DNA of 64,000 nt from Botryllus schlosseri (GCA_051294905.1 CM119371.1:17796001-17860000), one strand, 5' to 3'. Counted from the first letter of the stretch, positions 1,478-54,900 are shown. Notes: generated by a model from the sequence alone, not told the origin. Numbers and translations are program-made.

Positions 1478-1916
1478 AAGCTCACAGAGAAGTGGTTCAC
1501 ACTAATTACGATCAGCTAGAGCCTGTAATAAAATGCATTGTTGCTGCCAGAGTGATTTTTTAATCATTGCATGTAATTTTGTTCTGTTATTTCTGTATTG
1601 GTTTGCAGCCCGTTCTTCTGATTGGACATCGGATATGTAACGTCAACATTGTTAATGGTGTCATCGAGTGTCCATAACACAGCATAGCAAGTTCGTGAGT
1701 TATCTTTTATAGTTGCAAATGTGTATCACAGGGTCTTTATATATTGCACAGATGCTACTGACCAATTTGGATTAAAATGTAGTAACATGCAAGCAGCATG
1801 CTACCATGAATCTTTCAGTTTTCCTTCACAAAAGGTTAGGCCAGAATTACCAGAGACCGGGTTAGAATCCTGGTATGCTGTGTCAATGAACTGCGTGATG
1901 GGAGATGGGTCCCAGT

Positions 1917-10214: not shown

Positions 10215-10805
10215 ACATGTACTATCATCATCGTCATTGGTTTACAAGACACCACAAAATTGCGATACACTGAAAAGATAGGAAGGTGTCGACGCGACTT
10301 GGAGTAGCCTATGGAATCAGACACCCACCCTGGCCTAGGTGATGTCAAGAGGAGGCATGCACACTTAATGAAAAGTAGAAGAAGATAGTATAGAAAAAAG
10401 CAAGCGACAAAAATCGGGTGGCATGTTATGGTAGGCGAGATCTATAGGTCAGGTCGTGGTCCGGTATTATTGAGGATGGAGTAGTATTTATTTAGTAGTA
10501 ATTGCTTGTATTTCGACGTGAATGTGGTCATGCTTGTCGACTGTCGGATGACTGGCGGGATACTGTTCCCCTCGTCAGGTCCGGCATACTTGATAGAGCG
10601 ATGGTCCTTTCAGTGGATCATATGATATTTGGATGACGTGGACGTGCGTGTGTAGTACTTGTCCGCTTTGGATTCCGAGGTAAAGAAGTCATTGAAATAT
10701 TGGGGCCAATGACCGCATTGGAAATGATACATAAACTTGGCGATTTCTAGTTTCCACATATCTTCTATATTTGGTACAGCGAATCTCTTCAACAGCGACT
10801 TGTTG
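10215..10805 (-). mobile_element. 3' fragment of a CR1/L2-clade LINE (ORF2 C-terminus plus 3'UTR)
   Basis: Minus-strand translation KLEIAKFMY..YYTR..RSIKYAGP..NSIPPVIRQSTS..F.SKYKQ resembles CR1/L2 ORF2 C-termini. It ends in an (ATG)n-like tail. Homologous to 34690-34931 + 48022-48378 and to 63590-63740. Confidence 0.75.
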
Positions 10806-10997
10806 GATGAACAACCATGACTCGAGTCAAGTTGAGTCACCAAAAATAGCGACTCGAGTATGATTCGTGTCAATACTACCCATACGGGGATGAATGCAAG
10901 AGTCAGCTACATCGTTGCTGTGCGCTTTCGATTTGAATATTCCTCCATCCTGTGCAAGCAATCACAATGTAAACTCCAAGTTTAACACCATCTAATC

Positions 10998-17143: not shown

Positions 17144-19362
17144 GATAATGCGAGTATTCTGATAATCCAAATAACTCTGTACCATGACAAGCCGATTCTT
17201 CGTCACCGACATTTTCCTCCTCCAGTTCGCATTTTTCAGTCTTCAGCAGTCAGCGGTAGGCATTGTGCATGATATAGTGAAAATCACAATCCTAACAACA
17301 CTACGTTAATCGTTACAGTGTCAAAACCAATGAGCCGCGTAGGAATACCGCCGACTCCCGTTAGCGAAAACAACAACCAAACGTCCAGATGGCAGTCTCG
17401 TGATGATGACAGAGATATCACGATTAACGGTGCTGGCGCCGCGTATTGTATCTCAACTCTAAAGCCTATTACGAAAACGCACGGATGCGATGGAACATTC
17501 AATTGTCGCGATCTATCCGACGAATACCTATGCACGATGACACATCCAGAAATGAATATCTGGGGTACCATGGTTATGAACTCGAGACCCCGTTCTCTGC
17601 CCCAAAACATGACTTTTCCTGAAAGGGATAGACATCGTACAGCGCAGAGCTTACGGGATATATTGTCACACTCGCAAACTCCGGAAAGCGCATTAGATTT
17701 CCTATACAGAGCTTGCATACCAGGGATAAACAACGAGGTGTTGCGGGAAGATGGTACAATGGCATCACCTTGCGATTTTTGCAAACATAAAGAAATTTTA
17801 TGCTCAACATCCCTCTCAAGTCAGGATGACGGGGTCGCTAATGATCAATTTAACAAACATAAAATGTGCGTGAGCTCGCTTGAGGTTTGCGACCGTGTTC
17901 AGCAATGCCCAGGGGGCGAGGACGAGATGTACTGCGAAATAGGCATGAAGGATGGACATCGCAGTCGTGCAGAAATATCCAAGAAGTACAAGTCCGATAA
18001 CGGTAGCAAAGTTGTAGCGACATGCGAATCTTTAAGAATTGGGATCCAATCATTTCTCGAGACCGTCAAGTCAAAGGCACTTCATCACAGCACTGGAGGA
18101 ACCATGAACCAGCGATCGATCGATCTCGAATATAAGCGACACCGAATTGAACATTGGCCGGGTGAGGTACACCATATTTTGCCGCCCCTCTTCTCATCGA
18201 AATCAATTCTCCTCTTGGACACCCAATCTAGCAATCAATCCCTAACCATGTCCAGTTTATGCGACCACATAATCGACTGCCCCGGTGGCATTGACGAGAT
18301 GGTGTGCCCGCGGAGGTTTTATTGTCAATCTGGCTGTCCACTCTACGTGAATTCGTCTGTAACATCGGACGGTGTCAGCGATTGCGAAGACGGTAGTGAC
18401 GAATGGTTCGAGATGAGACAGCGGAAATGGGCTTTCGCGTCCAAGGACAGAATGGTGAAAGATTGGTACGTTCTGGCGTTTATGTGGCTGGTCGGAGTAT
18501 TCGCGGTTATCGGAAACTCGATGGTCATCGTCAAAACGCTGCAGTCGTTGTTATCGCTCCATCACATTCACCCCTGCACTAAGTTAAGGACTCTGGCTAT
18601 GTCTCTAAGATTATCAAATAGACCACGATTAGCCACATGTTAGGGGCGCTTCAAGGTTCAAGATATCTCACGCAAAGTTAAGACTAGAAGCGTACCGGAT
18701 GGGCGGACAAAGTCGATTCGTATTTGGCACAACGTGTTCATTTTGAGGAGTTATTCGCCGAATTGCTTCCCTCGTATTCGCGTTGGAAGTACTTTGGCTT
18801 TTACAGTACGCATAGCGTTTGCCTGCCAAAGCTTTTCGTTTCGGTTGGAAACGCAACATGGAAGCACGCGGCCGCGTTTCTATCGCTGAATCTGACCGCT
18901 TTCGTGTACATTCTCGTGACTTATCTCATCATATACAGATGGTCGAAAATAAGCAGGATTATTCAACGCAACCATGCTGAGAGGTGTCCCGAAAGTGTCA
19001 CCGAAACACCCGCTCATAAAAACAAAATACTTCCCTCTATCGGTTGGCAGAAGCTTCGAAAATTGCGGAAAGACACTCGCTTCGCGAAAAGCGAAACCTT
19101 GAACGTCAGTAACACCAGTATACAAAAACGTAACGAAATGCAAAAGATGCGGGTCCGCATCTTTTTCCTGGTATCCACCGATTTCATATGCTGGGTTCCG
19201 ATATGCGTACTTGGGTTCATGCATCTGTTCGGGTTTGATATATCGGACACCGCGTACATTGTGTCGGCCGTCGGCCTTCTCCCGATTAACAGCGCTCTGA
19301 ATCCGATTCTTTATTCGAACTGTTTGTGCGTGTTTCCTAAAATGTTTCGTTGTCGGAAGTGA
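17144..19362 (+). pseudogene. LDLa-GPCR paralogue, disrupted
   Basis: ORF 17318-18643 matches the LDLa region and TM1 of copy 1 and ends at an in-frame TAG (18641). The same frame continues as ..RTKSIRIWHNVFIL (copy 1: RKKGVRIWNSVFIL). At ~18745 it jumps, with a frameshift, to ECL2 (ELFAELLPSYSRWK vs ETLSLSLFPLYSEWR), so most of TM2-TM4 (~480 bp) is deleted. TM5-TM7 are intact to 19362. Candidate acceptor tttcag ends at 17143. Confidence 0.85.
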
Positions 19363-26108: not shown

Positions 26109-27290
26109 GATAATACGAGTTGTTCTGATATAATCGAAATAACTCCGTGATGACTCGCTGACTCTTACCTGTCCAAACCAAGATCTAATCCAGTGTTCCC
26201 CAACCTTTTTTCCATTCATCAACCCTTATCAAGCTTGACACATAACCCCCCCCCCCATATTTACGGATTCGAAAAAGAGGACCTATAGACGGGAAGTGCA
26301 TTTAACTAACTTTGATCGCTGGTGGGTTTACTAAAAATTGGCCATAGATTCCATAAAACCGGTTTACGGGACTATTTTTGGTTAATAAAACCGTTTTTAG
26401 TCAACTCTGGCGTCATATGCAAAATAAACCGTCTTCTCGTGGATCTTTGGCGGTGGTAAATAAATATATCTCATTGGACCTTCTAACATTTTCGCAACTT
26501 TATCGACCCATTGTTCATTAAAATCGCCCACGTTGAGAACCACTGATCGAACACGTAACCCTAACCTGAATGTATTGATGCAGATCAACATACTATCGAA
26601 TTCAACACAATTCTAGCTCATATTTATTGAAACATTTATTTTTGAATTTATGTGTACAATATCGATGCATTGCTTTCATATTAACAAATACAGGTATTGC
26701 ATTTCTAATGCCAAATTTACCAAGTGCCTAAATAATTGTAAACCAGTGAGAATTGCATTCTTAACAACACTGTCGATCGATCGTTACAGAGTCGAGGCCA
26801 ATGAACCTAGTCGGAATATTGGCGGTGCCGATTTACAAAAACAGTCAAACGTTCAAATGCCACCGAGCGAGGATGAGGAAGCCACCACGAATGAAGTGGC
26901 TGACGCAGTGTATTGCATCTCGCGTCAGACCCCCATACCGAAAAGTCAGTTATACGATGGGACATTCAATTGTCGCGACCTAATAGACGAATACCTATGC
27001 GCGATGACTAATCCAGAAATGGATACCTGGAGGTACGAGAACGTGGACTCGCAGCCCCTCTCCCTGCCCTCGAACGTCACTTTTCTTGAATGGTAGAAAC
27101 GCAGCAAAGCGGAGAGCGTGCGAGAAATCTTACAAAGCCCGAAGAACGCTTTAGATTTTTCAGCAGAGCTTGCAAATCGGGAATAAACAACGAGCTGTTG
27201 CTGGAGGATGGCACAACTGCATCGCCGTGCGATGTGTGCCAGCGCGAAAAATTCCTTTGCTCCACATCAGGGTCACCAACACGCGGCACG
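26109..27290 (+). pseudogene. Third LDLa-GPCR paralogue, N-terminal fragment only
   Basis: Reads AVYCISRQTP..DGTFNCRDLIDEYLCAMTNPEM, then a stop and frameshift, then RACKSGINNELLLEDGTTASPCDVCQREKFLCSTS, matching copy 2. The exon start cattacag|gataatacgagt matches copy 2 (17144). Interrupted by a MITE at 26191-26545. No 7TM follows. Confidence 0.8.
26191..26545. mobile_element. hAT-like MITE inside GPCR fragment 3
   Basis: CAGTGTTCCCCAACC / CGTTGAGAACCACTG termini. The TSD is degenerate (ATCTAATC / ATCGAACA). Confidence 0.55.
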
Positions 27291-34090: not shown

Positions 34091-34689
34091 AATCAATTTA
34101 ATACTTGCACATTTCAACTTATCAGAAGCAAAACTATCTGTGATGCATTTTTCAATCATTTCCAGTTCAGAGGACTTTCTTCACGGTTCGATCGTGTTTA
34201 TTGAACCTTATTGTTGTCAGAACTACATTCATTGCAGAAGAATGCCACAACTGGAAGACTTTTGTGTGTCCCTGAACTAGCATGACGTAAACCGAGTTAT
34301 CTAAAACATAACCGATCAAGTATGACAACACAACGGTGCACTGTTGTACAGTGCGACACGAGATTATACTTCATTTATGATATTCTAAAAGTCTTGGCTC
34401 AAAAGCATAATAATCACGGTGTCATTGGCTAAAATATAGATTCGTCAAAATCAGGACACATCTGAGATGTCAGAGCAATCTAGTTTTATCAGACATCGCC
34501 CTTCAAAATAAGAAACAAATCTAATAGCCCTGGCTATATAATATAATCATTGGTTTCAAGTAAACTAAATGGTATCGTTACCAGTGCAAAATGTTAAACA
34601 AATTCAGCGAGATCAACCGAAATTTAAAAACAACTTAGTCTAGTAGCCTACGTCGTCATGTGAGCGTATGGGGCCTGGCTGCCCATCCA

Positions 34690-34931
34690 ATAAGTCGCTG
34701 CTGAAGAGATTCGGCGTCCTAAACATATAAGATATGCGGAAACTAGAAATCGCCAAGTTTATGTATCAGTTTCACTGCGGTCGTTGCCCCGAATATTTCA
34801 ATGACTTCTTTACCTCTGAATCAAAAGCGCACAAGTACAACACACGCGCGTCCACGTCGTCCAAATATCATATGATCGACCGAAAAGATCATCGCTCCAT
34901 CAAATATGCCGGACCTGATGTGTGGAACAGT
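34690..34931 (+). mobile_element. CR1/L2-type LINE 3' fragment, left part (split by the Polinton-like insertion)
   Basis: Encodes KLEIAKFMYQFHCG..RSIKYAGPDVWNS. It resumes at 48022 (NSIPPAIRQSTSMSTFKSKYKQ), colinear with the copy at 10215-10805. Confidence 0.85.
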
Positions 34932-34984
34932 AGTAGTATATATGATCGGTCGCGAACTAACGTTTTTTTGCATGGGGTAGTATA

Positions 34985-35753
34985 GGCGGGGTGGTGAGCG
35001 GCTGGGAAAGCGGGGGTGGTGAGCGGCTCTTATTTCTTATGGCGGGGGCGGTGAGCGGCTATTGCGTCTTATGGCGGGGGTGGTGAGCGGCTCTTATTTC
35101 TTATGGCGGGGTCGTGAGCGGCTGGAAAACCAGGGGTGGTGAGCGGCTTTTATGTCTTATGGCGGGGGTCGTGAGCGGCTATTACGTCTTATGGGCGGGG
35201 TGGCGATTCGCCTTTTTTGCTATAGGCCGCGGTCGTGATTCGCCGTGAAAACCCGGGGTGGTGACTCGCCTTTTTTCTATAGGCGGCGGCGGCGATTCAC
35301 CTATCGTGTATTCTTACGGGTTCTGTGGTGATTCGCCATGTGTTCTTATGGGCGCGGTCGTGATTCGCACTTTCAGACATCTCTCGCGTGGTGTTGAATA
35401 GTCACCAACAATAACCGCACAAACGGAAACGTGGTTTGTTGTGAGGATTAAGCAGTGCGACCTATATTTCGAATGACCTGCGCGCTGAATTGTTTCACAG
35501 CCAACCGCGGTGGTCGTGACTCGCCTTTTTTACTATAGGTGGTGACGGTGATTCGCCTGTCGTGTATTCTTACGGGATCTGTGGTGACTCGCCATGTGTT
35601 CTTATGGACGCGGTCGCATGCGGCTATTGCGTCTTATGGCGGGGGTGGTGAGCGGCTATTGATGCTAACACGAAACCCGGGGTGGCGAGCGGCACTTATT
35701 TCTTATGGCGGCGGGTCTTATTTCTTATGGGTGCGGTCGTGATTCGTACTTTC
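34985..35753. repeat. GC-rich subterminal tandem repeats (left end)
   Basis: Degenerate ~25-31-bp units built on GGCGGGGTGGTGAGCGGCT / GTGATTCGCC / TCTTATGG. Mirrored at 47585-48005. Confidence 0.85.
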
Positions 35754-36843
35754 GGTATAGACTGCGGGCGGCATGTCGTACTTTCAGCAAAAAAGGTGTG
35801 AAATAGTTTGCCAAGTCTAGGAATCACTTCCAAGGTAATATTTTGGTATTTAGTTTACCGCAGAGCCGGCGTAGACGGCGATTCGAATATCAACAATAAC
35901 AACGCTCACGAATTAACACTTCAAATAGCTGTGAAATAGTTTGCAAAACCCCGCGATCGCTGACAAGATAATGTCTCGGTCATAACCATCTTTCACGACT
36001 TGGTGTCATAACCATACCGATCGCTCACGCGGTGAAATTTTAGTAATCAGTTTGTCACAGAACTTGATATCGCTGGTAAGATTTAACAAGTAACGAATAA
36101 CAGACCGCGGTAACTTGAATAGCGACAAATTGTCACTTATTTCCGCTCCAACCCTAATCCTTTGTGAAGTGAACGCTTATTCAAAAGGGTGTGATATAAT
36201 TTTAAAATCCAACGACCACTCACCGGATAATACTTCAGACATGGCAATTCCCTCATACCCGCCCACAAGGTAATATTTCGGTAATTAGTTTGTCACAGAA
36301 CCGTCGCAGGTGGTGATTGGAAAACCGACAATTTGTCACGCGCCCGCGATCGCTATATGTTTCACGCCTCCAGAATAGTGTCTGACTTTAGTTGCGTGAT
36401 AAGATCCATGAAAATATTCAATCAATGTGTTAGTTTATCAACTTGAAATGAAACTCACTACACAAATCAAGTCGATTCGTATCTGAATGTTTTAAATCGG
36501 TACAACTCTAATCCTTTGACAAATCCCTTAACGCGTTTTTGTTGAATCGAACGTAACCCGAATATTACTGACGCCGACTTTCAGCCGCATCGAATTATTC
36601 GCACATTCCGCGCCACTGTTTTCACACTTATAGAATCGTTACCAACTATAACTCTACAAGAATCAAGAATCACAAGTGTGTGCATTACACAGTTATTGTC
36701 TTTATTAACTTGACATCAAACACTTAACAAAAACACGCAACTACTCATTTGGCAACTCTAGCATTACCAAAAAATTCCAGTATTGTTGATTGAAAATCCT
36801 TGAGTCATTATTATCAAAAATGTTATAGTACCGCATCGGGATC

Positions 36844-36960
36844 CATTCGCGGGATGTACTAAAGGTAAATCCAAATAATCCACATTCGCGGGATGTACTA
36901 AAGGTAAATCCAAATAATCCACATTCGCGGGATGTACTAAAGGTAAATCCAAATAATCCA
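36844..36960. repeat. 3 x 39-bp perfect tandem repeat
   Basis: Unit CATTCGCGGGATGTACTAAAGGTAAATCCAAATAATCCA; mirrored at 46378-46494. Confidence 0.92.
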
Positions 36961-39844
36961 GAATGAAATATTTGGACTTTGACATAGTGTGAATTGAAAT
37001 AGGATTGACAAACACGACTACCAACTTTGATCCAGCCACATTTCAAGATCATACTTTGAAACAAGTAATGTAACATTACAACTCTATTCCCGATCCCGCT
37101 TTCCATTTGTCAAAGAGATATTTTAACATCTTACCATACTCAGAAGAATTATTCACGACATTAACAATTGTTAAAAATCTAGTTTTCACTTACTTGATTA
37201 TATCACTGCAACTCATAAATTTGAATTAATTCATCCTGGTTGTATTCGTATGCTCGGTCTTTTTTATTCAATTGTAAAGGTTGTTACTATTCTGAAGACA
37301 AAGTATTTACTAATCGGTGCATATACGATTTGACTTGGACATATTATATTTTGAGTATACGAGATTTGAATGTCTGAACAATAACTGAGAAATAATTTAT
37401 CACAATTATATCCGTAATATTACAGCGTAAAAGATATTGGAATGTCAGCAACTCTGTAAGGTCATAGTTACTACCACTAATTTACCCGACCAACTCGTCA
37501 TGATCATTCCTGAAATCAACACAAACGTGACCACTGACTTGAGTTAACCACAAAACAGCATCAAGTTTTAAATCCACTTGTAGCTTACGACTTATTTGAA
37601 TGCGGGTTATGTTTTGTTGTAATTGAGTGTACGGAAATAGTATTACGTCTCGACATATCACCATGTCGGAATTTGTGACAGAGAATTGAAACATATGCAC
37701 TTTACAGAGTGTGAAAATATCACTTTGAGTATCGAGTACCGTTCGAAGCTAGCGATCAATTCTTAATCATTTCAGTAACTCCCCATTGTGTGTGCTAAAT
37801 GAAAAATATCGCGAGGTTATACACTCTAAGACTTTGATCATTACAAAAGTAAATTGTGATATGTTTGTTAGATGCATCCAATTCAACTAGAAGTGTCTAG
37901 TGCCCAACACTCGTAATATCAAAAAAGTACTTGCTACACTGTTATTTGCTACGTGTTATGCATTGTTGTTCATTTGTAGTATTGAATGAAATTGTTCTTG
38001 AACCCTCAAATAATAATTCCCGACATGAAACCAAGCCACTGAAAGTCGTTACCATCACGAAGATACAATGTGTACGATGTTTGTCAAATGTGTCCTACCT
38101 GGCCAACAGAAAACAATTTTCACTAGCTTGGTAATGAAACCGAAGTCTCCATTCGATATATTATTTGCGTCAAATACTTTACAACGAACACATTTGCGTG
38201 GTTGAGCTTTACATCATCAGACTGTCATCTGTACATCAAGAATACACCCGACTTGTAACTGGATCGTTTACCTAACCGAGTTGTATGCACAGTTTGATAT
38301 TTTTGTCATTTAGTGATTGCTGAACATACCACTTCGAAATACTGCGTTGATCTTAATTTCCATCATCGTGATAAGTGAAGTACATTTGTTTTGAATTTAT
38401 AACAATAGGCTTTTCTACGACATGATAAATTATTGACAAGTTCTGCTTAGAAGATTGGTTGCATATCACGAAAAATAATATACCACACATATTATTACTG
38501 TTACTCCATTCATCGGTATTTTTTCCGTTGTCGATTTTCAAACGAGTAAAATTTATTACTTGAGTTGCTCTGCTTAATGTAAATGTAAACTCACCCGTCT
38601 TTCAACAACAAACAATGTTAAAAAAGTATGCAATCAAACACAACAAGTTTTACGATACTAATTATTATCCCACATAACCCATTTCTTACCGAAGACATAT
38701 GAAATATATTCATGTTACACGAAAATATTCGCTCATGCTACAAACCTGTACAATGATTGGTGGTGCTTTCAAACTGTTTCGATACCTCAAAAACTTTATT
38801 GTCTGAACGGTTGTTCATGTATCGTAATAATCAAGTAGTTCAACATAAAACTAGTATTAACAGAAACACCAGAGTTGTTTACACAAAAGTTTGTGTGTGT
38901 ACAGTATACGAATACCATTTGTAAATCCAGCACAATTGTGGTATCCATACGAGTTTAGTTAACGCAATTTACGACACCGAGGTCGCGTCATCTTTCGTAA
39001 GACAACAAACCAAGGCTCCAGGATATGTCCATGTCATAGCAATAAATCAGCTACTCCAACAACAGAGTGCATATGTTTCTAGTTACGGCGCTTACATCTT
39101 ACACACAAATCAATCTACTTTGCTAACGAAAAGTGGTGAGTCATCATATGGTTGTCCTCACAACTAAAACATACTATCATACAAAATGGTCGTTATAGTT
39201 TGCACACCAACGGTACATCGTACAAGTAACAAGTCTCGAGAATACAGTTATTCAAAAAACGTGAAAGTATTTCTACACCAAGTCGTTATGTTGACGAAAG
39301 CGTATATTGTAATATCATGATCGATTTGCATTCGTTGGTCACAAACTGTCACTACTCTAAATAATTCTTTTTCACTCAAACACAAACGCATACTTGTCAC
39401 CATTCGTTTTCATCAAGCACGAGTTCAAGAAACTTACTTACTACGATATGAATTTTTATTTTTATGTTGTGTAAATAGGTAATAATTAATTCAAGTAACA
39501 CTATATCAACATCATCGAGTTGTGCTAATAGATTTACATGTGATCTTGTGGTTTTCGTCGGGACATACAGCACGAACTAACTGTAGACTCCTCTCTGTTG
39601 TACAGCTACTCGGTAATCGAAATGCATTAACATGTAAACAACGATCTTGTTTCGTCACACCAAAAATATGTTCACTGTCGCGATACTCCGCACAAGACGT
39701 GCATAGCCTTTTCACACTCGTAATAGTATACCAACGTCAAGCGATAACGTTTAACAACACCGACGACACTAAACCCACGACGTTTACCTATGTCAAATTA
39801 CCACTTTCACTTGTCAGTCCATCGTTTACCTGACTAAACATATT

Positions 39845-40445
39845 ATTTTCCTTTGGAGATCTGACGTTTACCCAGAGTAAGAAACCATTTTCACTTGTAA
39901 ATATTTTTTTTCCTCGGCTAACAAACCTTTTTTCACTTGGAAATATATTTTTTCTCTGGGTAACAAACCTTTTTCACTTGGAAATATATTTTTTCTCTGG
40001 TTAACAAACCTTTTTCACTTGGAAATATATTTTTTCTCTGGTTAACAAACCTTTTTCACTTGGAAATATATTTTTTCTCTGGGCAACAAATCTTTTTCAC
40101 TTGGAAATATTTTTTTTCCCCGGGTAACAAACCTTTTTCCCTGAGCAACAAACCATTTTCACTTGGTGGTCCGTCGTTTACCCGAGTAAAAATATCATTT
40201 TCTTTTGGAGATCAGGCGTTTACCCCGTGTAACAATACATTTTCACTTGGAAAAATACTTTTACCTAGAGTAACTAATCATTTTCTCCTGGGTAACAAAC
40301 CCTTTTCCCTTGGAAATATATTTTTTCCCTGGGTACTAAACCATTTTCGTTTGGAAATATATTTTTTTCCCTGAGTAACAACGCCATTTTCTCTTGGAGA
40401 TGTGATGTTTACCTAAGTAAAAATATCATTTTCGTTTTGAAATCT
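39845..40445. repeat. ~41-bp minisatellite array (~14 degenerate units)
   Basis: Core unit TTTTCACTTGGAAATATATTTTTTCTCTGGTTAACAAACCT; mirrored at ~42893-43493. Confidence 0.88.
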
Positions 40446-41230
40446 GACAACCACACGCATCAATTTGGTATTTGTTGTATTGGCGACAGTTTGAAATTGA
40501 TTACAACGAACAGTGACGAAAATATAAACCGACAACCGGTTTCAGAGTATACCCGCATCGATCGCATCGCATCTATATCATCGGTTAACCACATGAAATA
40601 ACAGCATACCATTGGATATCGAAATGTATGTTTTGGAAATCGACGGATATTGTATGTCCTGGTGTGTGTGTGTCTGTGTGTGTGTCCGGGTTCGTGCTTT
40701 AGATTTTCCAGAGTCAAAATGTCTGAATAAAACACCTCCTCGACTTTGGTAGCTGGTTGATACACGGATAATGGTGTTCGGAAAACGAATGAATTTATGT
40801 TCCCCATGGCGCTAACAACTCCGGGTTACTTGTGAGTTTCCTCAGGTTTGTTTACTATATTGTGTCTTTACTGATCAATACATGTCGCTCCAGTCAGCTG
40901 AAACCGGATCACTAATACGAGAAAGTGTGTGGGGGCCTGATCTGGATATTCACTCATGAACCAACGACCAATATTCAAGTAAACATGGTACAGACAGTGT
41001 TTTGTCTCCATGAAAAATACCAACCATCACATACAAGTAACGTCGCGATTGTTCACAAGTATTCGCGTAAACGAGGTGTACATACAATGTGTCGGTGTAC
41101 AAACATCATGGAAAACAGATTCATGTTCTCAAGTATCATCATGCGACGACTCTGTACATTCAATGTGGGCATAGATGACACACGACATGATACAATGAAC
41201 AGTGCATTATGCATACCGATATATTCTCAG

Positions 41231-41506
41231 TCAAATATGCGAACCGTGTACTATCACGCATCCCGATTTTCGCTGAATATCCACAACACCAACAAATCTG
41301 TACATTTCTTTTCCCTCAACCTTGACGATAGAGTTGTCCTCCCAATGTACCAATCGAGTGTATGGTTCATCAGGTGTAAAATCCAAATCAAATGTCACCA
41401 AGGTATCGTTTTTCATTTTTAATATTTCCACTGCTGCATCTTGTCTGTGTCGTAAAACCACGGTGTGGGGCCAGAGGAATCTATGGATAGTTACGCGTAG
41501 TCCCAT
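41231..41506 (-). CDS. Hypothetical 91-aa protein in the palindrome spacer
   Basis: ATG-initiated ORF with protein-like composition (..DTLVTFDLDFTPDEPYTRLVHWEDNSIVKVEGKEMYRFVGVVDI..). No family recognised. Confidence 0.3.
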   Translation of the reverse strand: MGLRVTIHRFLWPHTVVLRHRQDAAVEILKMKNDTLVTFDLDFTPDEPYTRLVHWEDNSIVKVEGKEMYRFVGVVDIQRKSGCVIVHGSHI

Positions 41507-42158
41507 ATTTACTCGTGGATATGGCTAGGTAACGACGACGTTTTCTCAGTGGTCTGCGTGAGTGAACTGTTTCAATACGTAGCTGGATCAACTAGACCAA
41601 AAGTTTCCAACCACGTTTTATAACGACATGTAGAATTACGAGTCAGCGCCCTCTTGCGGAGTGGTTAACATGAAATCAGTCTTCAACCGCAGAGACACAC
41701 CTTGGATTACATTATCTAATCGTAATCGAACTCGAGATTCACACACACACACACAGAGTCCCTGTTTACGATTTCAATCCGGAGTCACTGCTCACGATGT
41801 TTATCTGTAGTCGTTATGTGGGAGTAGCGACATCTGACATATTCATCGCGTGAAAGATTGATAACGATGGTGATCGCCAAATACATTACACCGGGTGAAA
41901 CACTGCGGCCTCAGCAAAAAAGTTCGCAGGTTAGGACGAACAATACGTGGAGGGATTGAGCGAGTTACGCAACCCGATTATGTCGAAGTCTGTATCACGA
42001 TACAAGTCTACTTGAGAATCCGAACAATCTTACAAAATCAAGCTGTGAACCCGTGAAAGGGCTGTACTCGTGTGAGATTCATTTTTCACAAGTTGGGTGG
42101 AGGTCGGTTCATACTGAGACCGTGTTACGTCCAAATATGGCTGCTTGTCTGTCTCCAA

Positions 42159-45100
42159 GTCATCTATACCCACATTGAATGTACAGAGTCGTCGCATGAT
42201 GATACTTGAGAACATGAATCTGTTTTCCATGATGTTTGTACACCGACACATTGTATGTACACCTCGTTTACGCGAATACTTGTGAACAATCGCGACGTTA
42301 CTTGTATGTGATGGTTGGTATTTTTCATGGAGACAAAACACTGTCTGTACCATGTTTACTTGAATATTGGTCGTTGGTTCATGAGTGAATATCCAGATCA
42401 GGCCCCCACACACTTTCTCGTATTAGTGATCCGGTTTCAGCTGACTGGAGCGACATGTATTGATCAGTAAAGACACAATATAGTAAACAAACCTGAGGAA
42501 ACTCACAAGTAACCCGGAGTTGTTAGCGCCATGGGGAACATAAATTCATCCGTTTTCCGAACACCATTATCCGTGTATCAACCAGCTACCAAAGTCGAGG
42601 AGGTGTTTTATTCAGACATTTTGACTCTGGAAAATCTAAAGCACGAACCCGGACACACACACAGACACACACACACCAGGACATACAATATCCGTCGATT
42701 TCCAAAACATACATTTCGATATCCAATGGTATGCTGTTATTTCATGTGGTTAACCGATGATATAGATGCGATGCGATCGATGCGGGTATACTCTGAAACC
42801 GGTTGTCGGTTTATATTTTCGTCACTGTTCGTTGTAATCAATTTCAAACTGTCGCCAATACAACAAATACCAAATTGATGCGTGTGGTTGTCAGATTTCA
42901 AAACGAAAATGATATTTTTACTTAGGTAAACATCACATCTCCAAGAGAAAATGGCGTTGTTACTCAGGGAAAAAAATATATTTCCAAACGAAAATGGTTT
43001 AGTACCCAGGGAAAAAATATATTTCCAAGGGAAAAGGGTTTGTTACCCAGGAGAAAATGATTAGTTACTCTAGGTAAAAGTATTTTTCCAAGTGAAAATG
43101 TATTGTTACACGGGGTAAACGCCTGATCTCCAAAAGAAAATGATATTTTTACTCGGGTAAACGACGGACCACCAAGTGAAAATGGTTTGTTGCTCAGGGA
43201 AAAAGGTTTGTTACCCGGGGAAAAAAAATATTTCCAAGTGAAAAAGATTTGTTGCCCAGAGAAAAAATATATTTCCAAGTGAAAAAGGTTTGTTAACCAG
43301 AGAAAAAATATATTTCCAAGTGAAAAAGGTTTGTTAACCAGAGAAAAAATATATTTCCAAGTGAAAAAGGTTTGTTACCCAGAGAAAAAATATATTTCCA
43401 AGTGAAAAAAGGTTTGTTAGCCGAGGAAAAAAAATATTTACAAGTGAAAATGGTTTCTTACTCTGGGTAAACGTCAGATCTCCAAAGGAAAATAATATGT
43501 TTAGTCAGGTAAACGATGGACTGACAAGTGAAAGTGGTAATTTGACATAGGTAAACGTCGTGGGTTTAGTGTCGTCGGTGTTGTTAAACGTTATCGCTTG
43601 ACGTTGGTATACTATTACGAGTGTGAAAAGGCTATGCACATCTTGTGCGGAGTATCGCGACAGTGAACATATTTTTGGTGTGACGAAACAAGATCGTTGT
43701 TTACATGTTAATGCATTTCGATTACCGAGTAGCTGTACAACAGAGAGGAGTCTACAGTTAGTTCGTGCTGTATGTCCCGACGAAAACCACAAGATCACAT
43801 GTAAATCTATTAGCACAACTCGATGATGTTGATATAGTGTTACTTGAATTAATTATTACCTATTTACACAACATAAAAATAAAAATTCATATCGTAGTAA
43901 GTAAGTTTCTTGAACTCGTGCTTGATGAAAACGAATGGTGACAAGTATGCGTTTGTGTTTGAGTGAAAAAGAATTATTTAGAGTAGTGACAGTTTGTGAC
44001 CAACGAATGCAAATCGATCATGATATTACAATATACGCTTTCGTCAACATAACGACTTGGTGTAGAAATACTTTCACGTTTTTTGAATAACTGTATTCTC
44101 GAGACTTGTTACTTGTACGATGTACCGTTGGTGTGCAAACTATAACGACCATTTTGTATGATAGTATGTTTTAGTTGTGAGGACAACCATATGATGACTC
44201 ACCACTTTTCGTTAGCAAAGTAGATTGATTTGTGTGTAAGATGTAAGCGCCGTAACTAGAAACATATGCACTCTGTTGTTGGAGTAGCTGATTTATTGCT
44301 ATGACATGGACATATCCTGGAGCCTTGGTTTGTTGTCTTACGAAAGATGACGCGACCTCGGTGTCGTAAATTGCGTTAACTAAACTCGTATGGATACCAC
44401 AATTGTGCTGGATTTACAAATGGTATTCGTATACTGTACACACACAAACTTTTGTGTAAACAACTCTGGTGTTTCTGTTAATACTAGTTTTATGTTGAAC
44501 TACTTGATTATTACGATACATGAACAACCGTTCAGACAATAAAGTTCTTGAGGTATCGAAACAGTTTGAAAGCACCACCAATCATTGTACAGGTTTGTAG
44601 CATGAGCGAATATTTTCGTGTAACATGAATATATTTCATATGTCTTCGGTAAGAAATGGGTTATGTGGGATAATAATTAGTATCGTAAAACTTGTTGTGT
44701 TTGATTGCATACTTTTTTAACATTGTTTGTTGTTGAAAGACGGGTGAGTTTACATTTACATTAAGCAGAGCAACTCAAGTAATAAATTTTACTCGTTTGA
44801 AAATCGACAACGGAAAAAATACCGATGAATGGAGTAACAGTAATAATATGTGTGGTATATTATTTTTCGTGATATGCAACCAATCTTCTAAGCAGAACTT
44901 GTCAATAATTTATCATGTCGTAGAAAAGCCTATTGTTATAAATTCAAAACAAATGTACTTCACTTATCACGATGATGGAAATTAAGATCAACGCAGTATT
45001 TCGAAGTGGTATGTTCAGCAATCACTAAATGACAAAAATATCAAACTGTGCATACAACTCGGTTAGGTAAACGATCCAGTTACAAGTCGGGTGTATTCTT

Positions 45101-47792
45101 GATGTACAGATGACAGTCTGATGATGTAAAGCTCAACCACGCAAATGTGTTCGTTGTAAAGTATTTGACGCAAATAATATATCGAATGGAGACTTCGGTT
45201 TCATTACCAAGCTAGTGAAAATTGTTTTCTGTTGGCAAGGTAGGACACATTTGACAAACATCGTACACATTGTATCTTCGTGATGGTAACGACTTTCAGT
45301 GGCTTGGTTTCATGTCGGGAATTATTATTTGAGGGTTCAAGAACAATTTCATTCAATACTACAAATGAACAACAATGCATAACACGTAGCAAATAACAGT
45401 GTAGCAAGTACTTTTTTGATATTACGAGTGTTGGGCACTAGACACTTCTAGTTGAATTGGATGCATCTAACAAACATATCACAATTTACTTTTGTAATGA
45501 TCAAAGTCTTAGAGTGTATAACCTCGCGATATTTTTCATTTAGCACACACAATGGGGAGTTACTGAAATGATTAAGAATTGATCGCTAGCTTCGAACGGT
45601 ACTCGATACTCAAAGTGATATTTTCACACTCTGTAAAGTGCATATGTTTCAATTCTCTGTCACAAATTCCGACATGGTGATATGTCGAGACGTAATACTA
45701 TTTCCGTACACTCAATTACAACAAAACATAACCCGCATTCAAATAAGCCGTAAGCTACAAGTGGATTTAAAACTTGATGCTGTTTTGTGGTTAACTCAAG
45801 TCAGTGGTCACGTTTGTGTTGATTTCAGGAATGATCATGACGAGTTGGTCGGGTAAATTAGTGGTAGTAACTATGACCTTACAGAGTTGCTGACATTCCA
45901 ATATCTTTTACGCTGTAATATTACGGATATAATTGTGATAAATTATTTCTCAGTTATTGTTCAGACATTCAAATCTCGTATACTCAAAATATAATATGTC
46001 CAAGTCAAATCGTATATGCACCGATTAGTAAATACTTTGTCTTCAGAATAGTAACAACCTTTACAATTGAATAAAAAAGACCGAGCATACGAATACAACC
46101 AGGATGAATTAATTCAAATTTATGAGTTGCAGTGATATAATCAAGTAAGTGAAAACTAGATTTTTAACAATTGTTAATGTCGTGAATAATTCTTCTGAGT
46201 ATGGTAAGATGTTAAAATATCTCTTTGACAAATGGAAAGCGGGATCGGGAATAGAGTTGTAATGTTACATTACTTGTTTCAAAGTATGATCTTGAAATGT
46301 GGCTGGATCAAAGTTGGTAGTCGTGTTTGTCAATCCTATTTCAATTCACACTATGTCAAAGTCCAAATATTTCATTCTGGATTATTTGGATTTACCTTTA
46401 GTACATCCCGCGAATGTGGATTATTTGGATTTACCTTTAGTACATCCCGCGAATGTGGATTATTTGGATTTACCTTTAGTACATCCCGCGAATGGATCCC
46501 GATGCGGTACTATAACATTTTTGATAATAATGACTCAAGGATTTTCAATCAACAATACTGGAATTTTTTGGTAATGCTAGAGTTGCCAAATGAGTAGTTG
46601 CGTGTTTTTGTTAAGTGTTTGATGTCAAGTTAATAAAGACAATAACTGTGTAATGCACATACTTGTGATTCTTGATTCTTGTAGAGTTATAGTTGGTAAC
46701 GATTCTATAAGTGTGAAAACAGTGGCGCGGAATGTGCGAATAATTCGATGCGGCTGAAAGTCGGCGTCAGTAATATTCGGGTTACGTTCGATTCAACAAA
46801 AACGCGTTAAGGGATTTGTCAAAGGATTAGAGTTGTACCGATTTAAAACATTCAGATACGAATCGACTTGATTTGTGTAGTGAGTTTCATTTCAAGTTGA
46901 TAAACTAACACATTGATTGAATATTTTCATGGATCTTATCACGCAACTAAAGTCAGCCACTATTCTGGAGGCGTGAAACATATAGCGATCGCGGGCGCGT
47001 GACAAATTGTCGGTTTTCCAATCACCACCTGCGACGGTTCTGTGACAAACTAATTACCGAAATATTACCTTGTGGGCGGGTATGAGGGAATTGCCATGTC
47101 TGAAGTATTATCCGGTGAGTGGTCGTTGGATTTTAAAATTATATCACACCCTTTTGAATAAGCGTTCACTTCACAAAGGATTAGGGTTGGAGCGGAAATA
47201 AGTGACAATTTGTCGCTATTCAAGTTACCGCGGTCTGTTATTCGTTACTTGTTAAATCTTACCAGCGATATCAAGTTCTGTGACAAACTGATTACTAAAA
47301 TTTCACCGCGTGAGCGATCGGTATGGTTATGACACCAAGTCGTGAAAGATGGTTATGACCGAGACATTATCTTGTCAGCGATCGCGGGGTTTTGCAAACT
47401 ATTTCACAGCTATTTGAAGTGTTAATTCGTGAGCGTTGTTATTGTTGATATTCGAATCGCCGTCTACGCCGGCTCTGCGGTAAACTAAATACCAAAATAT
47501 TACCTTGGAAGTGATTCCTAGACTTGGCAAACTATTTCACACCTTTTTTGCTGAAAGTACGACATGCCGCCCGCAGTCTATACCGAAAGTACGAATCACG
47601 ACCGCACCCATAAGAAATAAGACCCGCCGCCATAAGAAATAAGTGCCGCTCGCCACCCCGGGTTTCGTGTTAGCATCAATAGCCGCTCACCACCCCCGCC
47701 ATAAGACGCAATAGCCGCATGCGACCGCGTCCATAAGAACACATGGCGAGTCACCACAGATCCCGTAAGAATACACGACAGGCGAATCACCG
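42159..47792. repeat. Right arm of giant inverted repeat
   Basis: Reverse complement of 35546-41179. The inner match ends at 41179/42159. Confidence 0.97.
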
Positions 47793-48021
47793 CCACCGCC
47801 TATAGCAAAAAAGGCGAGTCACCACCCCGGGTTTTCAGGCACCTCACCGCCGCAGCCTATACCCGAAAAGGCGAATCACGACCGCACCCATAAGAACACA
47901 TGGCGAATCGCGGCCCAGAGGGGGGTCTAAAAAGGCGAATCGCCACCCCGGGTTTCCAGGCGAATCGCCACCCCGCCCATAAGAACCCCATAGCCGCTCA
48001 CGACCGATCGACTATACTACT

Positions 48022-48378
48022 AACAGTATCCCGCCGGCCATTCGACAGTCGACGAGCATGTCCACATTCAAGTCGAAATACAAGCAATTACTACTAAATA
48101 AATACAGTCCATCCTCAAGATTACCGGACCACGACTGACCTATCGATCTCGCTTCCCATGGCATGCCGCCCTATTTCTTGTCGCATTCTTTTTCTATACT
48201 ATCTTCTTTACTTTCATTCAGTGTGCATGCCTCCTCTTTACATCGCCTAGGCCAAGGTGGGTGTCATATTCCATAGACTACTCCTTGTCGCTTCGACATC
48301 TTCCTGTCTTTTCATTGTATCGCATTTTTGTGGTGTATTGAACTGATAAAAATTGCTAATAAACCAATGATGATGATA
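48022..48378 (+). mobile_element. CR1/L2-type LINE 3' fragment, right part with 3'UTR and (ATG)n tail
   Basis: Continues 34690-34931 and ends AATAAACCAATGATGATGAT. Aligns to the reverse complement of 10215-10567. Confidence 0.85.
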
Positions 48379-48386
48379 GTCTAAAT

Positions 48387-50591
48387 CAGTGCTCTTCAAC
48401 CTTTTTCGGAGTGGTACACCCTTTTAACGTTTGCTCAAAACTCGTACACCCCTGTTCATTAGGGGTCTTCAAAAATGACTTTTTTTCTCAAATCGTACTG
48501 GCTACTTGATAAAATTGTTAGGTTACCTAATTTAAGCCTACACACCAAATTTGGTTCGATTCCAACCAGTAGCCGCATTGCTACGGGAAAAATAAATAAC
48601 GAAAAATTTGAAATTTTTCTGTTCACCCGATGAAAGTATTAGGTTGTCTATAAAAACGATGTTCTTCAAATTTGGTTCAATTCCAACCAGTAGAAGCGGA
48701 GTTATTGCCGTCAAAAATTTGGATTTGAATAAAATCGTATTTGGTCACAGAGTCTATTCGCCGCCAGTTAGGCCGCCTATCACGCAAATTGGAATTTATT
48801 TCGTGTCAGCCCCAAAACAGCATGACATTACGAACGATAATCAACCTAAATGTAACAGTATTGGGGAGAGAATAGGTAAAGCTACTGCTGCAGAAGCGGT
48901 GATTCAGATCAGCGATGATAGCAGGCGCACCAGCTTACTGCGTATCAGGCCTGCCCCACACCACCCACAGTCGACAGAAGCACATGGGCTGCATGAGATG
49001 TCAGTAACCTCAGATTCTATGTCGCTATACACAGTCTATTGTCGCTAATTTGAATCACTAGTAACAAAATATTAAATTACAAATGTATGGCGAAATATTG
49101 GACATAACATCGGCATTTTAAAACAAAAGGGTTTCGATTTCATCATGGATGCTGTTTCGACCCTGGCTGGCTACGTCACTTTTTTTATTTTCATTGCGGT
49201 ATTTATTAACGTCGGGTATGAAGTACCGATTCAAGAAGTCTGAGCTATCGCGGCGGTTTCCTCAAAAATCACTAAAAGACAAATGACTAGCTGAACACAT
49301 GTTTGTTAACTGCATACTTTCCAACATCAAACGGAGCCATTGGTCTATTGCCGACGGCTAAATGATTACGGGAGATCTGTGCTTATGACATCACAATCAA
49401 ACGGTGTACTGTATTACACTTGAGATAACATCGTACCATGCTCACAGGGCCGTAACAGCACTTCGTCAGCCCCCCCCCAAATCGTTGGCCTAGGGCCCCC
49501 CATGGGATGATAAACTTAACTTACGGGGGGCTTCGCCCCCCAGACCCTCCCTTGGCTATCCGCTTTTTGATGCTATTTCACATCTCCACTGGGTGTACGT
49601 TATGTGAGGCCGCTTTTCCCGCCTAGACGCGCGAAGCGCGAAAAATTTCAGTAATTCGATAATTCATGATACAATCGGCCAATAAGATTGCATTGCATAT
49701 ATATTGCTATCAATATCTTGTCCTCTCTGCTCATGTTATCAGATTTACCGGAAACTGTAGGGCCCATAAATAATAATTAAACATTTTCGGGTGGGCGGAC
49801 CCGTTGGTATGACTTCGTTACATGATTTTATTTCGTGACCTCCTGTCTGCTATACCAAAAATATAGAATTGCTCTAACGTACTAAACTAAAAGACGTACA
49901 CGATTTCAAATTGGTATTTCTTCACTGGCATATCTTTTTTCTCGCTGGATGGTATTTGTCTTCTGAGGTTCAGATTGCCAAGACAGGAACATATGGCGCC
50001 AGTCATTTAGGCGCCTATGGACAATTAAACCTATTATTTGGTATATATAACGAAGTTTTCGGTCTGCGTAAGGGCAGTCCGTTTCGGCCAAGCTTTTCGC
50101 GCTGCCGATCGTTCTGGCACACTTCTTGGAGTCGCATGTAATAAGTACTAAATCATTATATATCTTGGTGCGTGGTGGCGTGTTAATGGCCAACGCCGAT
50201 ATGTCCATTTCTATAAATGTTGCGTGTTTTTTCTTGGGGGAAGAGTACCAAATAATGAACATAATTGGCAACTTTAAATTTTGGAAAAAATTGCATAAAT
50301 TTTCAAAAAATACGCTATAATTTATGTTGATTCACGAAATAATTTGGGCCCCCCTTCGAGCTCACCCCCCTCCCCAATTTGGGGGTTTGGGGTGTGGCAG
50401 TTACGGTGCTGCATGGTCATTAACCTGTGAGTCAACCTGTCCTGACCCATAAACCTCCCTTTGTGATAGCTAGCCATCGGCTCATTGTAATTCGGATCTG
50501 GTACACCCCTGTACACCCCATCCGAGTGGTACACCCTTTGCAAATTCTGGTACACCCTAGGGTGTACGACCACCCCGGTTGAAGAGCACTG
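48387..50591 (+). mobile_element. Non-autonomous hAT element (GTACACCC family), copy A
   Basis: TIR CAGTGCTCTTCAACC / GGTTGAAGAGCACTG. Perfect TSD GTCTAAAT (48379-48386, 50592-50599). Near-identical to 53233-55855 outside the nested inserts. Confidence 0.9.
49445..50411. mobile_element. hAT MITE nested in copy A
   Basis: TIR CAGGGCCGTAAC / GTTACGGTGCTG. TSD CATGCTCA / CATGGTCA. Absent from copy B. Confidence 0.82.
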
Positions 50592-51280: not shown

Positions 51281-51993
51281 CAAATGGAACACAAGTAGTT
51301 CTATTTATGCGTCACAAACTGTCACGCGATATCTTCGCCATCTATCTATATTAGGCGCTGCAGTCGGATTACTTTTCACATAACAGAGTAGCAAACTTAC
51401 AGTTACAGCATGAGTCTATGGTTGTAAGGACAGAGGTATTCGGGTGATTCAATTACCTTTTAGTTGATGAGGTGGATGATAATTGTTTATCTTCCGATTT
51501 CTCAGAGTAATTGCGCAGCTTTGAAGCATGATATGCTCGCGTCCTTTTGTCATGAGATGAAAACTTTCATTGTAATGATGATTTTTGCATTTAAAACAAC
51601 AACAACGAAAAGAACAATTTAAAACAAACATGTTTAATACATACATCAGTCGTCATGCAGTCATAAGTGGGACAAGTTCTTTTGCAAGAAAATCACGAGA
51701 AAATTACTCTTAACAAAACTCGCAGTAAAAGTGGCATTTATGTATAATCAACACTGTACTAGGCTATTAAGTAATTTGGGTTCACTTGGCGAAGCACCAC
51801 TTCTATTCGTAATCGAGGAGAATTCTGCTCTTCTACTTATAACCGAATTGCCTTCGTAATTACTTCAGCCACCTCTTGCTCACGTATAGGCCAATTTCAT
51901 TCCCTGGTAAAAACTGTTTCGCAGGGTCTTCATTGCAGATTCGTGATTTGAACCATTTTTGTTTTCCAGATCAGTTTTAGTCTTTGTTGCATC

Positions 51994-54900
51994 ATGTCGA
52001 AATCCATCTCGATGTTGATTCCTGTTCTCGCATTGTTCTGGTGCGTGGTGTCGAGTAGCCAACAACATTTGGTTTGCAAGAACATCGAAGATGTTTTTAC
52101 TGATGATGGGCTAGCTGAAACTCGATTACGTCACATAGGAATCCAAGGCCCTCCGGGCAAAATGGGTTCAAAAGGCGAACGTGGAATTCGTGGATTACCC
52201 GGGACCGAAGGTAGTCCAGGTAGGGTGGACTACGACCGAGTTGATGACGTCATCGACGAGAAAATAGCGAATTGTAAGTCGTTCATGAAAATATTCCAAA
52301 CTCGCATCCGACCAGTAAAGTTCCTATATTTTCTTGACAGCCATGAGTGTAATGAACTCGACCATATCCGAACTGAAGAGAAATCTATCAACTCTGTTGT
52401 CAGGTATGCATTTGCTTTGTACTTCAATTCATATTTCAGTAAGATATATGTCAACGGATATGAAATATCCAAAATAGTTTCAATATTAAAGAAATAGTAT
52501 AAAGCAAAGGGTATCGTTGTTGCCACCTCTTCCAAACTTTCTGTATTTATTTATTTTGTCTGTATACGATTTCGCTCACCTAAACCCAAGATGCCCGCAC
52601 AGACTTTATATCTTCGTTGCAAATGATATTGCCAAAGCTTACAATCAAAACTTATACCCATACCAAAGTTCGGGCAACTAGAATTCAACTCCATGCAACA
52701 CACCACTTACACATAATTTCCACGAATTGTAGCCTACCTCCTTCCAAAGACATGGAGCTGCAAGAAATGTTCCCTCTGATGTTTGACGAGTCTGCGCACA
52801 CTGACCAATTCACTGCGCAGACCCTTGGACAACAGTGCGTAACAACTAAACAAAAAGGCCATCATTTTGGATTTTTTGTGCGCATCTTAAATTTTCTGTG
52901 CCCAGATACCGTGTCAGCACTGTGCATTTGCGCACGTGCGCAGCTTAGAGGGAACATTGGCGGCGAGTATACACCATGGGGTCAAATATGTTGATATGCC
53001 GGATTGTTCATTGTGACTTTGGCCTACTTTGGCGACATACTTATCGTTGTGGTACGGTTGGCTAATTTTATGGAATCGAATCCTAATTTCTATGCTGTAT
53101 CGTGGAAGGTATGAGTGTAATCTTACCACAATGAATGGAATCAATTTGTTAAAGTAGTAGATATTTGAGGGTTCTTTGTTGATGTTATTATTCATCCAAT
53201 TCGCTATCTTCCTTTTCGCGGATCATATAGATCAGTGCTCTTCAACCTTTTTCGACGTGGTACACCCTTTTATCGTTTGCTCAAAACTCGTACACCCCTG
53301 TTCATTAGGAGTCTTCAAAAATGACTTTTTTTCTCAAATCGTACTGGCTACTTGATAAAATTGTTAGGTTACCTAACTTAAGCCTACACACCAAATTTGG
53401 TTCAATTCCAACCGGTAGCCGCATTGCTACGGGAGAAGAAAGTTTCTATTTATTATATAAAATAAATATCGAAAAATTTGAAATTTTACTGTTCACCCAT
53501 GAAAGTATTAGGTTGTCTGTAAAAACGATGTTCTTCAAATTTGGTTCAATTCCGACCAGTAGAAGCGGAGTTATTGCCGTCAAAAAATTTGGATTTGAAT
53601 AAAATAGTATTTGGTCACAGAGTCTATTCGCAGCCAGTTAAGCCACCCGCCACGCAAATTGGAATTTATTTCGTGTCAGCCCCAAAACAGCATGACATTA
53701 CGAACGATAATCAACCTAAATGTAACAGTATTGGGGAGAGAGTAGGTAAAGTTACTGCTGCAGAAGCGGTAATTCAGATCAGCGATGATAGCAGGCGCAC
53801 CAGCCTACTGCGTATCAGGCCTGCCCCACACCACACACAGTCGATAGTAGCACTTGGGCTGCAAGAGATGTCAGTAACCTCAGATCGTATGCCGCTATAC
53901 ACAGTCTATTGTCGTTAATTTGCATCAATAATAACAAAATACTAAATTGCAAATGTATGGCGAAATATTGGACATAAAATCGGCATTTTAAAACAAAAGG
54001 TTTTCGATTTCAACATGGAAGCTGTTTCGACCCTGGCTGGCTACGTCACTTCATTTATGTGCATTGCGGTATTTATTAACGTCGGGTAGGAAGTACCGAT
54101 TCAAGAAGTCTGAGCTATCGCGGCGGTTCCCTCAAAAATCACTAAAAGACAAATGACTAGCTGAAAACATGTTTGTTAACTGCATACTTTCCTACACCAA
54201 ACGGATCCATTGGTCTATTGCCGACGGCTAAATAAATAGGAGAAATGCTTATGACATCACAGTCAAGCGGTGTACAGTATTACACTTGAGATAACATCGT
54301 ACTATATTGCCAGGCCGTGTTATTTTTGGCATATGCCAAAACTGCCAAAAATAACTTATTTTTGGCATTTTTCGATTTTTATTTTTGGCAGTTTTGGCAT
54401 CGTCCTCTAAATAGATAGTTTCAGCCTCGAATTAGTCACAAAAACGTTTTATTTGGGCTAGTTTGTCAAAAGACACCACATAATGTGCAGCATCCACGTA
54501 TAATCAGTGCCAACAAACAATAATAAGAAGAAAAAACCTAACGATTTCATAGGTTAATAATATCAAACGAAACCACAAAATGTGCAGTATCCATCGTAAT
54601 CGGTGCCAATAAGCAACAAAAAAAGAAAGAAAAGCCAAACAAACACGCTCAACAGCTGATTGTTACAGCTGTTGAATAGACTTAAATCGTTTGCACTGTA
54701 ACAGTGCTTCCAAACTCAGGTCAGCTAAGTTTCTCCCAAATTCATTTCTCGCCCAGCGAATCTGGGAAATATCGGCTTCAACAGTAGCCGTTGAGGGAAA
54801 GAATGTTGCCAGTCATCCACAAAAGGTTTTGAGAGCTTCAAAATCTTTGGAGGGCCGAACCGGCTTCCATGCATCATGAAAAGAGATCACTTCACCAGTG

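Follow-up and report, generated by a model that had tools for sequence, protein, structure and literature searches.

The stretch of Botryllus schlosseri DNA analysed here (GCA_051294905.1 CM119371.1:17796001-17860000; 64,000 nucleotides, called the window below) carries a mobile element built around a near-perfect palindrome, and this element is one member of a large palindrome family, not a one-off. The family is probably a satellite with Polinton ends that uses the enzymes of a helper Polinton, and its arms would be re-copied from each other during extrachromosomal replication. The putative helper dependence is read from the ends that the integrated copies share with the helper.

The palindrome and its insertion site

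The palindrome is organised about the axis i+j=83338, on which positions 35546-41179 (left arm, plus strand) are complementary to 47792-42159 (right arm, minus strand) at 5626 of 5634 positions with no indel; the neighbouring registers pair only 1560-1641 of 5635 positions (<30%). The first-pass annotation had described two arms of about 5.6 kb around a 979-bp loop, and the exact arm comparison gives arms of 5634 bp and places the unpaired loop at 41180-42158. Its eight substitutions, namely 36381/46957, 36678/46660, 37590/45748, 38101/45237, 38791/44547, 39698/43640, 40788/42550 and 41170/42168, were all recovered, and none was additional within 35546-41179/42159-47792. Outward of the arms a loose pairing extends to 35512/47826, adding 4 mismatches. 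The tandem arrays are mirrored between the arms, as had also been noticed: a perfect 39-bp x 3 repeat lies at 36844-36960 (plus strand) with its mirror at 46378-46494, and a 21/41-bp array of A/T tracts lies close to the loop at 39800-40444 (plus strand) with its mirror at about 42894-43538. The loop junction, which directly follows ...GATGAC, is common to 12 others among the 35 copies listed.

The mobile unit exceeds the palindrome. It spans 34932-48021 (13,090 bp), begins with AGTAGT, ends with ACTACT, and is bordered on both sides by AACAGT, the left 6-bp TSD copy (34926-34931, plus strand) matching the right one (48022-48027, plus strand); the bases beyond the TSD differ between the two flanks. 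Measured against these borders, the palindrome arms make up 86% of the whole element, the proportion that had been estimated for them. The outer 614 bp on the left (34932-35545, plus strand) and 229 bp on the right (47793-48021, minus strand) have no mirror symmetry, and their agreement is limited to the first 9 bases. In the left terminal region the (AGT)2 end is combined with subterminal repeat modules rich in GC. The region has a normal length for its arm type and shares sequence with helper TIRs; positions 34969-35197 are 93.5% identical to the helper L058. The right terminal region is a foreign end, to which we return below.

The insertion has split a host repeat (34676-34931), which resumes at 48022-48340. 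An unbroken paralog of this repeat, on the minus strand at 10245-10817, contains AACAGT once, at the place that corresponds to the insertion, and is the equivalent of an empty site. Loose ends at 34932 in contigs X1 and X22 also continue into sequence like the right flank, but they are no proof of an allelic empty site because the flank is a high-copy repeat.

The palindrome family, its helper and its loop gene

In the 495-Mb genome, the degenerate end motif was found 1,202 times in forward and 1,199 times in reverse orientation, compared with 13 and 16 for the control. About 1,200 elements carry the common ends; about 90 of them have the helper integrase, and about 1,100 are related to the window element. 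Whether other copies have the same palindromic layout was a question raised by the first-pass annotation, and such copies were found both by similarity and by position. The copies retrieved by similarity, 20 in number, all have inverted arms of at least 2.7 kb; both ends are visible in 17 of these, and all 17 have a perfect 6-bp TSD. The positional sample consists of 30 terminus pairs chosen by position among the 100 that head the C1 list; the window copy, copies fetched beforehand and four pairs that were nested or very long had been set aside. Arms of at least 4 kb occur in 21 of these 30, and a perfect 6-bp TSD in 28, so the suggestion that a self-complementary element with Polinton ends could integrate with a clean TSD holds well beyond the window copy. 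Four elements of the positional sample bear an integrase and have TIRs of 478-810 bp within the 2.5 kb fetched per end.

The copies are mosaics of subfamilies, as the left arm of the window element is, and are pairwise 73-99% alike. Their lengths range from 12,888 to 14,741 bp in 46 uninterrupted, hand-picked copies, and their loops from about 300 to 980 bp, clustering near 330, 900 or 980 bp, with junctions that are fixed inside subfamilies. The source from which the arm DNA originated was not found.

The helper Polinton was located through long terminus pairs, which were then fetched. A genome search with the PF03175 profile gave no match, its positive control being likewise silent, and the PF04665 search gave a single weak match. 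Two such pairs are helpers: L058/59, with TIRs of about 800 bp, and L068/69, with TIRs of about 660 bp. Both contain long ORFs, and they measure 15.3-16.2 kb. Their genes include a pPolB (PF03175), an integrase with a chromodomain, and an A32-like ATPase, whose match lies under its curated cut-off. A 423-aa protein has a predicted fold with a pLDDT of 93.5 and a Foldseek match to double-jelly-roll capsids (E 5e-17). Genome-wide, 92 of 113 integrase matches are at least 90% identical, and the palindrome family is about tenfold commoner than the helper.

In the window element itself, no pPolB, integrase, ATPase or capsid was found; the longest stop-to-stop frame is 168 aa, a Pfam search of 5 frames of the element gave no match, and tblastn of the helper genes against the window arms gave none either. 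Helper-like DNA in the window arms amounts to one 70% match, at 36664-36828, to the stretch just inside the helper TIR. Other copies contain helper DNA that lies past the TIR, either in mirrored form in the two arms (L033/34, L052/53, L138/39, L152/53 and L164/65) or on one side (L116/17), and the terminal modules of the helpers recur in palindromic elements. From the shared ends and the captured helper DNA we infer that the palindromes are mobilised in trans by the helper proteins.

The loop of the window element encodes, on the minus strand at 41506-41231, a predicted orphan protein of 91 aa. In the sampled loci, tblastn gave 65 entries, 41 of them with a complete open frame; the other 24 ran off the edge of the fetched sequence or had a truncation, a frameshift, a changed start or a stop codon (4 entries). 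In none of the 41 sequences, a set selected for its open loop ORF, is any of the other five frames open. Genome-wide there are 1,201 candidates, with a stop codon in 5 of the best 150. Two subfamilies of the gene differ by a dS of about 1.0 and a dN of 0.27 (dN/dS 0.27), and the loop ORF is, as judged from these comparisons, under purifying selection. Since the subfamilies stand at a dS of about 1.0, the palindromic layout is old. Only three outside homologs were found, all of them close and none longer. The protein has no match in PHROGs, Pfam or PDB sequences and no usable match in the Atlas, tblastn against four helper stretches gave no match to the ORF, and the AlphaFold model has a pLDDT of 40.6. 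As a guess, the product might be a small, beta-rich accessory protein that aids competition for the replication or packaging machinery of the helper. Apart from the tandem array and the loop ORF, no stop-free frame was conserved in a tblastx comparison of the window half with 10 diverged left halves. A 168-aa frame at 40916-41422 and its 130-aa mirror were considered as genes and rejected for want of a conserved frame in this comparison, and no gene was found in the left arm.

Homogenised arms and shuffled ends

Within a copy the two arms are nearly alike, with a median mismatch of 0.17% in 67 copies. A four-way comparison of arms was made for 45 of 50 copies (281 pairs, which are not independent, and 606,028 columns), leaving out the two helpers, one armless stretch, one unlike-armed copy and one nested copy. 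It was found that 11,507 between-copy differences occupy both arms, compared with only 16 shared arm mismatches, of which 6 fall in a single pair and none involves the window copy; the sample covers 45 of about 1,100 copies (about 4%), so that parent copies may lie outside it. These counts agree with the active homogenisation of the arms that the first-pass annotation had suggested in the form of gene conversion. The 8 arm mismatches of the window copy are private new alleles, 5 in the left arm and 3 in the right, and another 14 private substitutions are present in both of its arms.

Copies with a one-sided segment of at least 150 bp have a median arm mismatch of 0.55% (n=15) compared with 0.13% (n=52; p=0.0009, a contrast inflated by hybrid tracts), and therefore the arms age after insertion. 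For 255 of 597 arm mismatches both alleles are found in other copies, and some copies contain internal discordant tracts; therefore ectopic exchange is not restricted to the ends, and homogenisation need not take place. Arm discordance shows no clear polarity, being elevated in two places, the terminus and the tandem array. Transitions account for 0.51 of one-arm and 0.61 of both-arm changes, spectra that are similar and do not discriminate. The simplest reading of these alignments is that the arms are made alike at about the time of transposition and diverge afterwards. In a symmetric element the loop and the element as a whole have one and the same orientation, and spacer flip-flop isomers, which the first-pass annotation proposed to look for, would not stand out on this basis.

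The ends of the elements are both individual and modular. The first 60 nt are distinct in 74 of 75 elements. Over the first 30 nt the two ends of one element are identical in 62 of 73 cases, compared with 11 of 2,628 between-element pairs; clearly unlike ends occur in 6 of 73 elements. The ends are assembled from modules of 5-8 nt that are shuffled among elements, and the helpers use the same modules. Module 7-12 is statistically unlinked from 13-20 (p=0.10) and from 21-25 (p=0.21); the modules at 21-25 and 26-30 are linked, and linkage was found for the module pairs C-D (p<0.001) and B-D (p=0.009). The window copy, L074, L076, L099, L054 and L146 have terminus-anchored foreign tracts and an intact TSD; the tracts range from 3 bases within the first 12 (L074) through 229 bp (window) to >1 kb (L076). 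They begin at the terminus, as would be expected if strands primed there had switched templates.

In the window copy the distance from the terminus to the inner anchor is 303 bp on the right, compared with 688 bp on the left and 554-933 bp in 38 other ends. Both ends of other copies match this right end at 95-97% identity. Its junction falls in a repeated 109-bp block and is out of register, which leaves the end about 385 bp short with the TSD intact. We had also considered the left end as the foreign, helper-derived one, and this was rejected as the left length is normal and the right end is the short one.

A replication model, its rivals and their meaning

The standing model both of protein-primed replication and of the restoration of end homology is the panhandle, for which direct evidence is said to be lacking (PMC11886824). 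In the model that we propose, the protein-primed polymerase of the helper would start at the (AGT)2 end and displace one strand, which would snap back into a stem of about 6 kb with a loop of 0.3-1 kb, the end of the stem serving as a duplex origin. One arm would then be templated by the opposite arm, most likely by a nascent strand that folds back after crossing the loop, or alternatively through mismatch repair of the stem; in either case the daughters would integrate with identical arms. Near the ends, nascent strands may switch between molecules and so generate hybrids such as the window copy as well as shuffled terminal modules, and the product would be inserted by the helper integrase. 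In L035 and L138 the arm reaches about 37 and 25 nt further into the loop, respectively, and this growth fits fold-back copying. Doubling of a half of about 6.5 kb would bring the element near the helper length and may suit the helper capsid. The narrow length range, somewhat under the 15.3-16.2 kb of the two helpers, may reflect packaging; for packaging in helper capsids, the narrow length and the capsid gene of the helper are only suggestive.

Arm-to-arm gene conversion occurs in mammalian Y palindromes, and in the same Polinton-dependent family the arms could instead be kept alike mainly after insertion, by such chromosomal conversion or by cruciform repair. Private substitutions present in both arms outnumber those in one arm (844 versus 342 across the sample, 14 versus 9 in the window copy); post-insertion conversion would also yield the 14 of the window copy, and the internal discordant tracts make a chromosomal style of exchange possible. 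However, one-sided insertions persist and are accompanied by greater arm divergence, terminal modules are shuffled at a scale of <15 bp, and foreign ends reach within 6-9 bases of the terminus with an intact TSD, which is hard to achieve by conversion without outer homology. With about 4% of the copies compared, we regard maintenance mainly after insertion as unlikely but possible. The first-pass annotation had read the window copy as a candidate snap-back defective genome, perhaps of recent origin, with decayed cargo in its arms. The Polinton ends, the self-complementarity and the TSD in that proposal stand, and the 70% helper match at 36664-36828 and the helper fragments in some copies speak in the same direction; a recent helper copy with decayed cargo is not supported, as the window arms have no helper protein match, about 1,100 elements are related to it, the subfamilies are deep (dS about 1.0) and the family has its own selected gene. 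The size and age of the family largely refute a recent one-off origin from a resident Polinton, which we consider highly improbable, and a remote fold-back origin is possible. The lack of helper genes in the arms, the old layout and the selected loop gene therefore describe an established satellite lineage instead of a newly arisen defective genome.

Foldback elements, too, are built of long inverted arms that contain tandem arrays, so that a cut-and-paste transposase of the FB/Mutator or Galileo type could have produced an element that merely resembles Polintons. Foldback elements have TSDs of 7-9 bp or more and a partner with a DDE transposase and the same ends. In the present family the TSD is 6 bp in 28 of 30 elements of the positional sample, the TIR sequence and terminal modules are common to gene-carrying Polintons, and the (AGT)2//(ACT)2 ends are as in the Mavericks treated in the excerpt of PMC8097293; a foldback origin is accordingly a little more doubtful still than the one-off defective genome. 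No long read across the locus was seen, and the arms are fully identical in 4 of 67 copies, which could be assembly consensus; both facts would fit a fold-back artefact of assembly or sequencing. Against this, the different flanks with their TSD rejoin into the host repeat that is unbroken at 10245-10817, the arm/loop junctions are fixed among unlinked copies, and other copies have one-sided insertions. The two ends of the window copy differ and each of its arms has private alleles, which makes an artefact very improbable; of all the explanations it is the one to which we give the least credence.

The Polinton-ended satellite can also be placed among known systems. Ends of the form (AGT)2//(ACT)2 or (AG)3//(CT)3, a 6-bp TSD and a length of 12.7-24.6 kb are given as Polinton/Maverick traits in the excerpts of PMC8097293 and of the review PMC6431247, and the window element has the end motif, the TSD and a length inside that range. 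It lies outside the autonomous Polintons, however, having no helper-type genes and arms that are too long: the arms measure 5,634 bp, compared with TIRs of 46-1,447 bp in intact vertebrate Mavericks (PMC8097293, excerpt), and instead of pPolB, integrase, ATPase and capsid it has one orphan gene in the loop. Like non-autonomous Polintons, the family probably depends on a helper and has the ends of a resident gene-carrying Polinton and dispersed young copies with their own TSDs, but it differs in being palindromic, in not being a deletion derivative of the helper, in its own selected gene and in its shuffled ends. A helper-derived defective genome is different again, since the window element has helper sequence only in its terminal region and in one weak match of 165 bp. 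Snap-back or copy-back defective genomes and self-complementary parvovirus genomes are likewise self-complementary and in need of a helper, whereas the present family is long-lived, unrelated to the helper genes, integrates with a TSD and has open Polinton termini at both ends. With viral satellites it shares a sequence and a gene of its own that are unrelated to the helper. The foldback transposons (Drosophila FB, sea-urchin TU, Galileo) have long inverted arms, tandem subrepeats and a variable loop in common with the window element, which differs in TSD length, end motif and partner and has arms several times longer. Adenovirus work reportedly includes hybrids with unlike ends. Panhandle formation and end repair in adenovirus and PRD1 also involve inverted repeats with restored homology, but those repeats are about 0.1 kb according to the excerpt of PMC11886824, whereas the repeat of the window element is 86% of the genome and its products are fixed in the host as hundreds of snapshots.

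A literature search over titles and abstract openings found no account of palindromic Polinton derivatives; the founding Polinton paper, Repbase entries and supplements lay outside its scope and may describe such elements. Non-autonomous Polintons are described in Repbase, and those of zebrafish are said to have been described by Kapitonov and Jurka in 2006. If these have multi-kb TIRs, the palindromic layout would not be new, and a prior description of non-autonomous Polintons with long TIRs is possible. As far as the excerpts go, non-autonomous Polintons were apparently absent in a survey of the anole (PMC3014272), and a C. elegans paper reports 744-bp TIRs (PMC11414722).

Taken at its widest, and held tentatively, the proposal is that the family is an integrating satellite of an animal polintovirus, with a self-complementary genome sized for the helper capsid and a selected loop gene of its own. 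Every round of replication would rewrite its arms from one another and reshuffle its ends between molecules, and the thousand or so genomic copies may then be a record of the panhandle intermediate. At about 13.7 kb per copy, the family would occupy about 3% of the genome as an upper estimate. Multi-kb near-perfect palindromes, which are usually deemed unstable, can be a successful mode of existence, and the divergence of their arms could date insertions in the way that LTR divergence does. The replication of Polintons has so far been modelled and not observed, and about 1,100 copies with 6-kb stems, end signatures and hybrids make the panhandle model testable from sequence and population data.

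Array and neighboring features in the window

Near the loop of the window copy of the palindrome family lies a tandem array (39800-40444) with periods of 21 and 41-42 bp. Since its A/T tracts are phased with the helical turn, the array suggests bent DNA or nucleosome positioning next to the loop. The window also contains a second, smaller foldback (1916-4588), whose inverted arms of 900 bp are 97% identical. It carries GATTAC-type tandem repeats, and its ends are different.

Clustered GPCR genes, apparently intronless and with an LDLa domain plus 7TM, are located at 5703-8300, 17273-19362 and 26617-27096; one is a single 865-aa frame, while the others are split or partial. A direct duplication of 1.06 kb (48382-49439 versus 53228-54305, 92%) was also observed, with frames bearing collagen repeats (51952-52497) between and near its copies.

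Layout and cargo of other family copies

The 20-kb family copy L052/L053 (G000:C2:3706474-3726514) consists of full arms and two loops oriented alike, with partial arms between the loops, and its mirrored parts are all 100% identical. This double-loop copy looks like a replication concatemer. The layout of L054/55 is similar, but its two outer arms are unlike each other. Family members are also nested inside one another, apparently three deep at G000:C1:16768420-16810257; in another nested case, L060/L061, a separate TSD flanks the inner copy.

Some copies carry open reading frames. In the palindromic copy L033/L034, a 217-aa ORF of the helper, the gene-carrying Polinton with the same ends, is open in both arms (L033:2471-3121 and L034:5390-6040) and is about 90% identical to the helper ORF. 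The family copy L070/L071 (G000:C3:2481513-2491596) has a 2.4-kb arm and, on one side, two related ORFs of 263 and 271 aa with a weak zinc-finger match.

Other integrase groups in the genome

Beyond the helper group, the integrase matches in the same genome form two more groups, at 66-68% identity (12 matches) and 53-54% identity (8 matches). These groups are putatively assigned to other Polinton-like families.
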